Assembly: GCF_041886205.1 (NCBI RefSeq)
Contig: NZ_CP169029.1
DNA: 64,000 nucleotides
From: Escherichia coli
GTDB lineage: Bacteria; Pseudomonadota; Gammaproteobacteria; Enterobacterales; Enterobacteriaceae
Direction: 5' to 3' (one strand)
Shown here: positions 6,020-6,157 of the stretch, piece by piece
Layout: every line of letters begins with the position of its first letter
How positions within the stretch are numbered: the stretch's first letter is position 1
Notes under the pieces: generated by a model
The model's input: the letters and a program-made list of their open reading frames with translations, nothing else
What the model was told of the DNA's origin: nothing
The model's database searches: none
Position numbers and translations under genes: made by a program

Positions 6020-6154
6020 ATGGTTCAGTGTGTTCGACATTTTGTCTTACCGCGTCTGAAAAAAGACGCTGGCCTGCCGTTTTTCTTCCCGTTGATCACC
6101 CATTCCCAGCCCCTCAATCGAGGGGCTTTTTTTTGCCCAGGCGTCAGGAGATAA
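6020..6154 (+). CDS. pyrL: pyrBI operon leader peptide
   Basis: 44-aa peptide MVQCVRHFVLPRLKKDAGLPFFFPLITHSQPLNRGAFFCPGVRR ending just before pyrB. Confidence 0.9.
   Translation: MVQCVRHFVLPRLKKDAGLPFFFPLITHSQPLNRGAFFCPGVRR
6108..6135 (+). terminator. pyrBI attenuator (rho-independent terminator inside pyrL)
   Basis: Hairpin agcccctcaatcgaggggct followed by a T8 run immediately upstream of pyrB. Confidence 0.85.
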
Positions 6155-6157
6155 AAG

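Follow-up and report, generated by a model that had tools for sequence, protein, structure and literature searches.

The pyrBI leader of an Escherichia coli genome: anatomy and conservation of what is almost certainly the known UTP-sensitive attenuator

Results

The window analyzed here is a 64,000-nt stretch of Escherichia coli DNA (GCF_041886205.1, contig NZ_CP169029.1), in which an earlier note had flagged the span from 6020 to 6157. This span consists of the pyrL leader gene plus the 3 bases ahead of pyrB, and it lies within the yjgH/pyrB intergenic region of E. coli (5740 to 6200). The genes are ordered bdcR, bdcA, yjgH, pyrL, pyrB, pyrI, ridA, and mgtA, as they are in K-12, and pyrL sits directly 5' of pyrB-pyrI on the same strand. 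In RefSeq strains, an identical open reading frame (ORF) is annotated as pyrL, with pyrB as the next gene. The features of the locus are as follows.

5967 to 5972, plus strand: putative -35 hexamer of the main pyrBI promoter, TTGCAC (K-12: TTGCGC) (sequence, K-12 alignment)
5989 to 5994, plus strand: -10 hexamer, TATAAT (sequence; invariant in five divergent E. coli)
6002 to 6007, plus strand: initially transcribed region AATTTG, at which UTP-sensitive reiterative transcription (stuttering) has been reported (sequence; PMC6524683, PMC7039003)
6010 to 6015, plus strand: Shine-Dalgarno sequence of pyrL, GGGAGG (sequence; nearly invariant in 41 Enterobacteriaceae leaders)
6020 to 6154, plus strand: pyrL, leader peptide gene of the pyrBI operon, 44 codons plus TAA (ORF, profile matches, RefSeq annotation)
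6050 to 6072, plus strand: upstream hairpin, the candidate pause hairpin (folding, pair counts in 41 leaders)
6080 to 6088, plus strand: U-rich tract UUUUUCUUC, encoding Phe-Phe-Phe, where RNA polymerase is proposed to pause in a UTP-dependent manner (sequence, conservation; mechanism from PMC10135430)
6108 to 6127, plus strand: hairpin of the attenuator (intrinsic terminator), 8-bp stem with 6 G-C pairs and loop AATC (terminator scan, folding, covariation)
6127 to 6134, plus strand: T8 run of the terminator (sequence, scan)
6146 to 6150, plus strand: Shine-Dalgarno sequence of pyrB, AGGAG, within the last pyrL codons (sequence; CAGGAGAT conserved in the Enterobacteriaceae leader alignment)
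6158 to 7093, plus strand: pyrB, aspartate carbamoyltransferase catalytic chain, the regulated gene (TIGR00670, 420 bits)
7106 to 7567, plus strand: pyrI, regulatory chain (TIGR00240, 244 bits)

When aligned to K-12 MG1655, the window was identical from the -10 box to the pyrB ATG, with 100% identity over 5972 to 6200. The sole mismatch within 5740 to 6200 was at position 5971, where the window has A and K-12 has G. Strain E2863 matched the window over all of 5740 to 6200 (100% identity). The window thus shares with the K-12 pyrBI leader and attenuator (pyrL, b4246) the sequence from the -10 box to pyrB, the gene order, and the 44-aa leader peptide, and it differs by a single base of the -35 hexamer that falls outside the flagged span.

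The main pyrBI promoter is presumably the one named P2. We place its -35 hexamer at 5967 to 5972 by the spacing to the published AAUUUG transcript start. The variable base A5971 is position 5 of this hexamer, and both TTGCAC and TTGCGC match the consensus at three of six positions. A consensus promoter scan called no promoter. We attribute this miss to the weak -35 (3/6 match) and did not count it against the promoter. Transcription is inferred to start at about A6002, at the beginning of the AATTTG reported as the initially transcribed region of pyrBI (PMC6524683, PMC7039003), where reiterative transcription provides an independent control of roughly 7-fold (PMC6524683). This site lies just upstream of, and outside, the flagged span. 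Its layout is consistent with reiterative transcription, as a run of at least three T residues falls just past the putative start and 3' of the -10 box (TATAAT at 5989 to 5994, AATTTG at 6002 to 6007). A TTTG run likewise follows the start in 31 of the 41 aligned Enterobacteriaceae leaders, that is, in every leader whose aligned segment reaches that far 5', as well as in three Vibrionaceae leaders.

Between the leader start and the terminator lie two elements whose sequence would suit a pause region, an upstream hairpin and a U-rich tract. The core of the hairpin is a 6-bp helix, GCGUCU/AGACGC, at 6052 to 6069 with the loop GAAAAA. It can be extended to 6050 to 6072, where the predicted energy is -11.6 kcal/mol (z = -2.2). 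Among the 41 leaders, 95% of its cells were paired, with changes on both sides at two of the six pairs. A "hairpin pause" on pyrL has been described together with the termination site of the leader (PMC10135430), and we infer that the hairpin at 6050 to 6072 is that pause. Farther 3', the U-rich tract contains a T-run at 6080 to 6084; T makes up 34% of the transcript leader versus 24% of the whole window. In the minimum-energy and centroid folds, the U/C-rich tract at 6084 to 6091 (UCUUCCCG) also pairs with the stretch around the pyrL Shine-Dalgarno sequence at 6009 to 6016 (CGGGAGGA). Both segments of this helix are constrained for other reasons, and RNAalifold dropped it.

The terminator hairpin at 6108 to 6127 reads AGCCCCTC-AATC-GAGGGGCT, and the first T of the T8 run pairs with A6108. 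Its predicted energy was -15.9 kcal/mol (z = -4.0), with 1 of 200 shuffled sequences as stable. The terminator scan and folding therefore bear out the description in the earlier note of a hairpin followed by T8. That note also placed the T8 immediately before pyrB. The run does precede the gene, but this wording is loose, as 23 nt (6135 to 6157) separate it from the pyrB ATG at 6158, and they include the pyrB Shine-Dalgarno sequence.

The ORF at 6020 to 6154 encodes MVQCVRHFVLPRLKKDAGLPFFFPLITHSQPLNRGAFFCPGVRR, which matched both Pfam PF08052 (117.1 bits, cutoff 25; residues 1 to 44) and the NCBIfam equivalog NF007587 (120.1 bits, cutoff 61) over the full length. The frame runs through the terminator: the hairpin takes up codons 30 to 36 (Q P L N R G A) and the T-run codons 37 to 39 (F F C), so that the leader ORF enters an intrinsic terminator ahead of pyrB and codons 30 to 39 cover the hairpin and T8. 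The TAA stop at 6152 to 6154 lies 17 nt beyond the T-run, with 3 nt left before the pyrB ATG, and overlaps the region of the pyrB Shine-Dalgarno sequence. It was thus incorrect that pyrL ends within a hairpin, as the earlier note had it. Other authors also state that the whole terminator lies inside pyrL (PMC4824070). The wording fits leaders of the Salmonella/Citrobacter/Klebsiella type, not those of E. coli. Three nucleotides, AAG (6155 to 6157), separate the pyrL stop from the pyrB ATG in the window and in K-12; the distance is 2 nt in E. albertii and in the E. coli strains SC434 and E69.

Another ATG, at 6016, adjoins the Shine-Dalgarno sequence 4 nt 5' of the pyrL ATG and out of frame with it, and it opens a 49-aa ORF (6016 to 6165, plus strand) that ends 8 nt inside pyrB. 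We rejected it as the real start because the product had no family match and most relatives lack this ATG, reading GGGAGGAAGCATGG. The C-terminal frame of this ORF is the one used by Kosakonia/Enterobacter-type leaders.

In a search of 5500 to 6700 on both strands, no Rfam family reached its threshold, and there is no Rfam family for this leader. The best plus-strand match was Trp_leader (RF00513) over 6064 to 6134, with 19.7 bits against a gathering threshold of 41 (E = 0.43). We dismissed this and the other subthreshold matches, including a minus-strand match to Chlorobi-1 (24.5 bits versus 50), as generic matches to a hairpin beside an A/T-run. The same scan found no match to the PyrR-binding-site motif in 5500 to 6700, even at E values up to 10.

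To place the leader within the species, we compared complete E. coli genomes. The pyrL-pyrB region was present in 5,424 of 5,426, and the remaining two were without any match. Sixty rows spaced evenly down the ranking of these 5,424 genomes were inspected: over 5985 to 6160, identity was 100% in 54 and 99.4% in the rest. Exactly this sequence occurs in about 90% of the 5,424 genomes. In about 600 genomes (5,424 minus 4,818; e.g., ABU 83972), the sequence 5' of the pyrBI -10 box has diverged, and in the three of these that we examined, the 5' neighbor was not yjgH but an arginine-repressor-like gene beside a YfcC-family gene. The diverged-upstream genomes were unchanged between the -10 box and pyrB. 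Because the leader stays the same despite a different upstream sequence, it belongs with pyrB and not with the upstream gene. Three of the matches to the region were on records classed as plasmids.

For a wider comparison, 120 loci from other species were collected by scanning species-representative genomes for a DNA pattern of the pyrB N-terminal coding region. Across these loci, the leader ORF, U-tract, and terminator were kept in Enterobacterales and Vibrionaceae, with compensatory changes in the stem. A GC-rich hairpin and T-run preceded pyrB in 111 of the 115 loci with enough upstream DNA, a tally that is partly circular because the hairpins were themselves located by hairpin searching and folding. 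There were 23 distinct 7-bp stems (for example, GCCCCTC/GAGGGGC, GCCCCTT/AAGGGGC, CCTCCCC/GGGGAGG, and AGCCCCG/CGGGGCT). At least one of these hairpins, that of Aquaspirillum, lies 5' of a TATAAT box and is probably the terminator of a neighboring gene.

As a less biased test, we imposed the two E. coli helices on a plain MAFFT alignment of 41 Enterobacteriaceae leaders and counted pairs explicitly. Paired cells made up 93.8% of the total, and both sides had changed at four pairs (18 cells). None of 500 shuffles matched the observed pairing or covariation score, and both values fell sharply when the partners were slid by one to three columns. A register shift of one column in Buttiauxella-type rows accounted for most unpaired cells. 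When run on the MAFFT alignment, RNAalifold put the terminator out of register and paired the T-run spuriously with the stretch around the pyrB Shine-Dalgarno sequence; we used the pair counts and the structure-anchored tally in its place.

In almost every Enterobacterales locus, an ATG-initiated ORF enters the 5' arm of the terminator. The position at which it ends falls into three classes.

Class 1, stop inside the hairpin, 33 to 34 aa: Salmonella, Citrobacter freundii group, Klebsiella/Raoultella, Kluyvera, Buttiauxella
Class 2, stop 17 nt past the T-run and 2 to 3 nt before pyrB, 44 aa: E. coli, E. albertii, some Citrobacter, Pluralibacter
Class 3, stop 27 nt past the T-run, overlapping pyrB by 8 nt: Kosakonia, several Enterobacter, Trabulsiella

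The leaders of Serratia and Yersinia, which are longer and more diverged, likewise stop inside the hairpin. Leaders from Salmonella, the Citrobacter freundii group, and Klebsiella share with E. coli the start region, the Shine-Dalgarno sequence, the MVQCVRH... leader, the pause hairpin, the U-tract, the terminator, and the pyrB Shine-Dalgarno sequence. In contrast to E. coli, they encode 33 to 34 aa from the MVQC-type start, and their stop is mostly a TGA lying across the junction of the loop with the 3' arm (CTCAATTGAGGGG). The loop is AATT in Salmonella and AATC in E. coli, which turns TGA into CGA (Arg34) and leads to the translation of 11 more codons. The RNA hairpin persists even though the peptide C terminus changes in frame and length, which suggests that translation through the 5' arm is what counts, rather than the sequence of the peptide.

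Several loci in this collection had features of their own. In Yersinia aldovae, Y. artesiana, and Y. pekkanenii, a repeat of ~130 nt is inserted between the attenuator and pyrB, about 60 to 200 nt 5' of the gene; its sequence (...CCCCAGGAGCTTAC...GGGGTGAGCGAAAGC...) looks like that of an enterobacterial repetitive intergenic consensus (ERIC) element. Upstream of pyrB in Vibrio and Aliivibrio, the layout is the same: TATAAT is followed after 7 to 8 nt by AATTT or CGTTTG, then come a Shine-Dalgarno sequence, a short ORF that stops at the hairpin, and a U-tract, and the terminator lies ~30 to 90 nt before pyrB. The leader peptides of these loci have no similarity to PyrL. An Enterobacterales-like pyrL-attenuator-pyrB arrangement was also found in a record titled Martelella alba, labeled as an alphaproteobacterium, a genome that may be contaminated or mislabeled.

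Discussion

We conclude that the feature is, almost certainly, the already known E. coli pyrBI leader with its UTP-sensitive attenuator. The leader is base for base the K-12 sequence that has been studied experimentally, all sequence elements of the published mechanism are present, the leader sits before pyrB-pyrI, and RefSeq annotates the genes as pyrL and pyrB. The sequence elements, the identity to K-12, and the conservation come from this analysis, while the mechanism comes from the literature. By its sequence, the feature is intact and ordinary, and the earlier note's reading of it as a classic, intact, and unremarkable attenuator is supported by the 100% identity to K-12 over 5972 to 6200, the annotation, and the elements found. 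As a standard, intact copy of a very well-studied attenuator, it should leave the pyrimidine control of aspartate carbamoyltransferase in this strain normal. The significance of the finding goes little past correct annotation; what is useful is the corrected anatomy and the cross-species view.

For the identical K-12 sequence, UTP-dependent termination and read-through are known to need translation of the leader (PMC5021804, PMC4824070, PMC10135430). When UTP is abundant, pyrL is transcribed quickly and termination occurs at the hairpin, whereas under limiting UTP the polymerase pauses on the U-rich template; the terminator is then kept unfolded by a coupled ribosome, so that pyrB is expressed (PMC10135430). 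Furthermore, the pyrL terminator has served as a reporter of coupling, with expression down 18-fold when coupling fails (PMC5021804). Mapped onto the window, transcription would begin at about A6002, and RNA polymerase would then cross the U-rich leader with its pause hairpin (6050 to 6072) and U-tract (6080 to 6088). If UTP were scarce, the polymerase would stall in the U-rich pause region, allowing a ribosome that started on pyrL at 6020 to catch up and to trail closely through 6108 to 6134. This ribosome would physically block the terminator hairpin, and transcription would proceed into pyrB-pyrI. With plentiful UTP, the polymerase would outrun the ribosome, the hairpin at 6108 to 6127 with its U8 would form, and the transcript would end before pyrB. 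High UTP would act a second time, through an independent sensor, by promoting stuttering on AATTTG (6002 to 6007) and the release of AAUUUUn transcripts. The UTP sensors are the upstream U-rich pause region and, separately, the AATTTG start site; the terminator hairpin is not a sensor.

Could the leader instead work in the manner of the trp and phe attenuators, with ribosome stalling at the three Phe codons (6080 to 6088) deciding between an antiterminator and the terminator? The FFF motif is present in pyrL, and the weak Trp_leader match covers this part of the leader. However, that match scored far below its gathering score, and neither the minimum-energy nor the centroid fold contained a structure that competes with the 5' arm of the terminator. 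The Phe codons belong to the U-rich pause tract and read FSF, FFL, or FFA in relatives. Moreover, the regulated genes are for pyrimidine and not phenylalanine, and the published mechanism senses UTP via the polymerase (PMC10135430). We consider this explanation very improbable.

We give even less credence to an ordinary intrinsic terminator that ends yjgH or insulates pyrB and has no regulatory role. Although the hairpin scores as a standard terminator and drew terminator-like Rfam matches on both strands, yjgH ends at 5739, 369 nt upstream, with the pyrBI promoter in between. The hairpin also lies inside a translated and conserved leader ORF, and it stays with pyrB across genera and in the roughly 600 E. 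coli genomes with a different upstream sequence (no yjgH neighbor in the three examined). It is just as hard to credit that the PyrL peptide is itself the functional product, as a small regulatory protein, and that the terminator is incidental. The N-terminal two thirds of the peptide (MVQCVRH.VLPRLK.DAGLPFFFP) is well conserved in Enterobacteriaceae and supports the Pfam and NCBIfam families, but this part overlaps the pause hairpin and the U-tract, which can themselves constrain the sequence. Between genera, the C-terminal frame, length, and stop vary (33, 44, or 48 aa), yet the RNA hairpin persists, and the candidate leader ORFs of distant relatives (Serratia, Yersinia, and Vibrio) score 13 to 41, compared with 242 for the self-alignment of PyrL, although the architecture is kept.

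Beyond the UTP-sensitive attenuator itself, the geometry of the pyrL-pyrB junction led us to a speculative reading of the longer peptide, which we think rather unlikely to be correct. The 44-aa form of E. coli and E. albertii may have been derived from the 33-aa Salmonella type by one T-to-C change in the loop (TGA to CGA), and it could add translational coupling between pyrL and pyrB. Under such coupling, ribosomes finishing pyrL would reinitiate on the pyrB start or unmask it, and if so, read-through transcripts would also be translated more efficiently.

The pyrBI leader can be compared with other attenuators. The E. coli pyrE (rph-pyrE) attenuator works on the same principle, in that UTP-sensitive polymerase pausing determines the distance at which a ribosome trails, and an intrinsic terminator before a pyrimidine gene is blocked by that ribosome. 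Its translated frame is the end of a real gene, rph, rather than a dedicated leader peptide, and it has no sequence relation to the pyrBI locus. The leaders of trp, his, phe, and thr resemble pyrBI in having a short leader ORF and an intrinsic terminator before biosynthetic genes and in relying on coupled transcription and translation. In those systems, charged tRNA is sensed by ribosome stalling, which acts through an antiterminator/terminator switch. In pyrBI, by contrast, it is the polymerase that senses, and the ribosome acts on the terminator itself by blocking it directly; the folds predicted no antiterminator, and the Rfam leader models went unmatched. Pyrimidine-responsive transcription attenuation is also shared with the Bacillus-type pyr attenuators, in which the PyrR protein, bound to UMP or UTP, binds RNA and there is no leader peptide, whereas the pyrBI region had no PyrR-site match.

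The region also contains ORFs that we treated as due to chance. Two on the minus strand (5708 to 6040 and 6025 to 6117) and one on the plus strand (5844 to 5981) had no Pfam match and are unannotated in RefSeq. The ORF at 5708 to 6040 (minus strand) is 110 aa long, extending over the pyrBI promoter as well as 21 nt at the start of pyrL. At its location, the K-12 locus tags skip from b4246 to b4248, a gap that presumably reflects a withdrawn hypothetical gene. In the yjgH-pyrL spacer, a weak terminator-like site at 5837 to 5851 (plus strand) has a 5-bp stem and the tail AATTATTGAT, and it falls within chance expectation.
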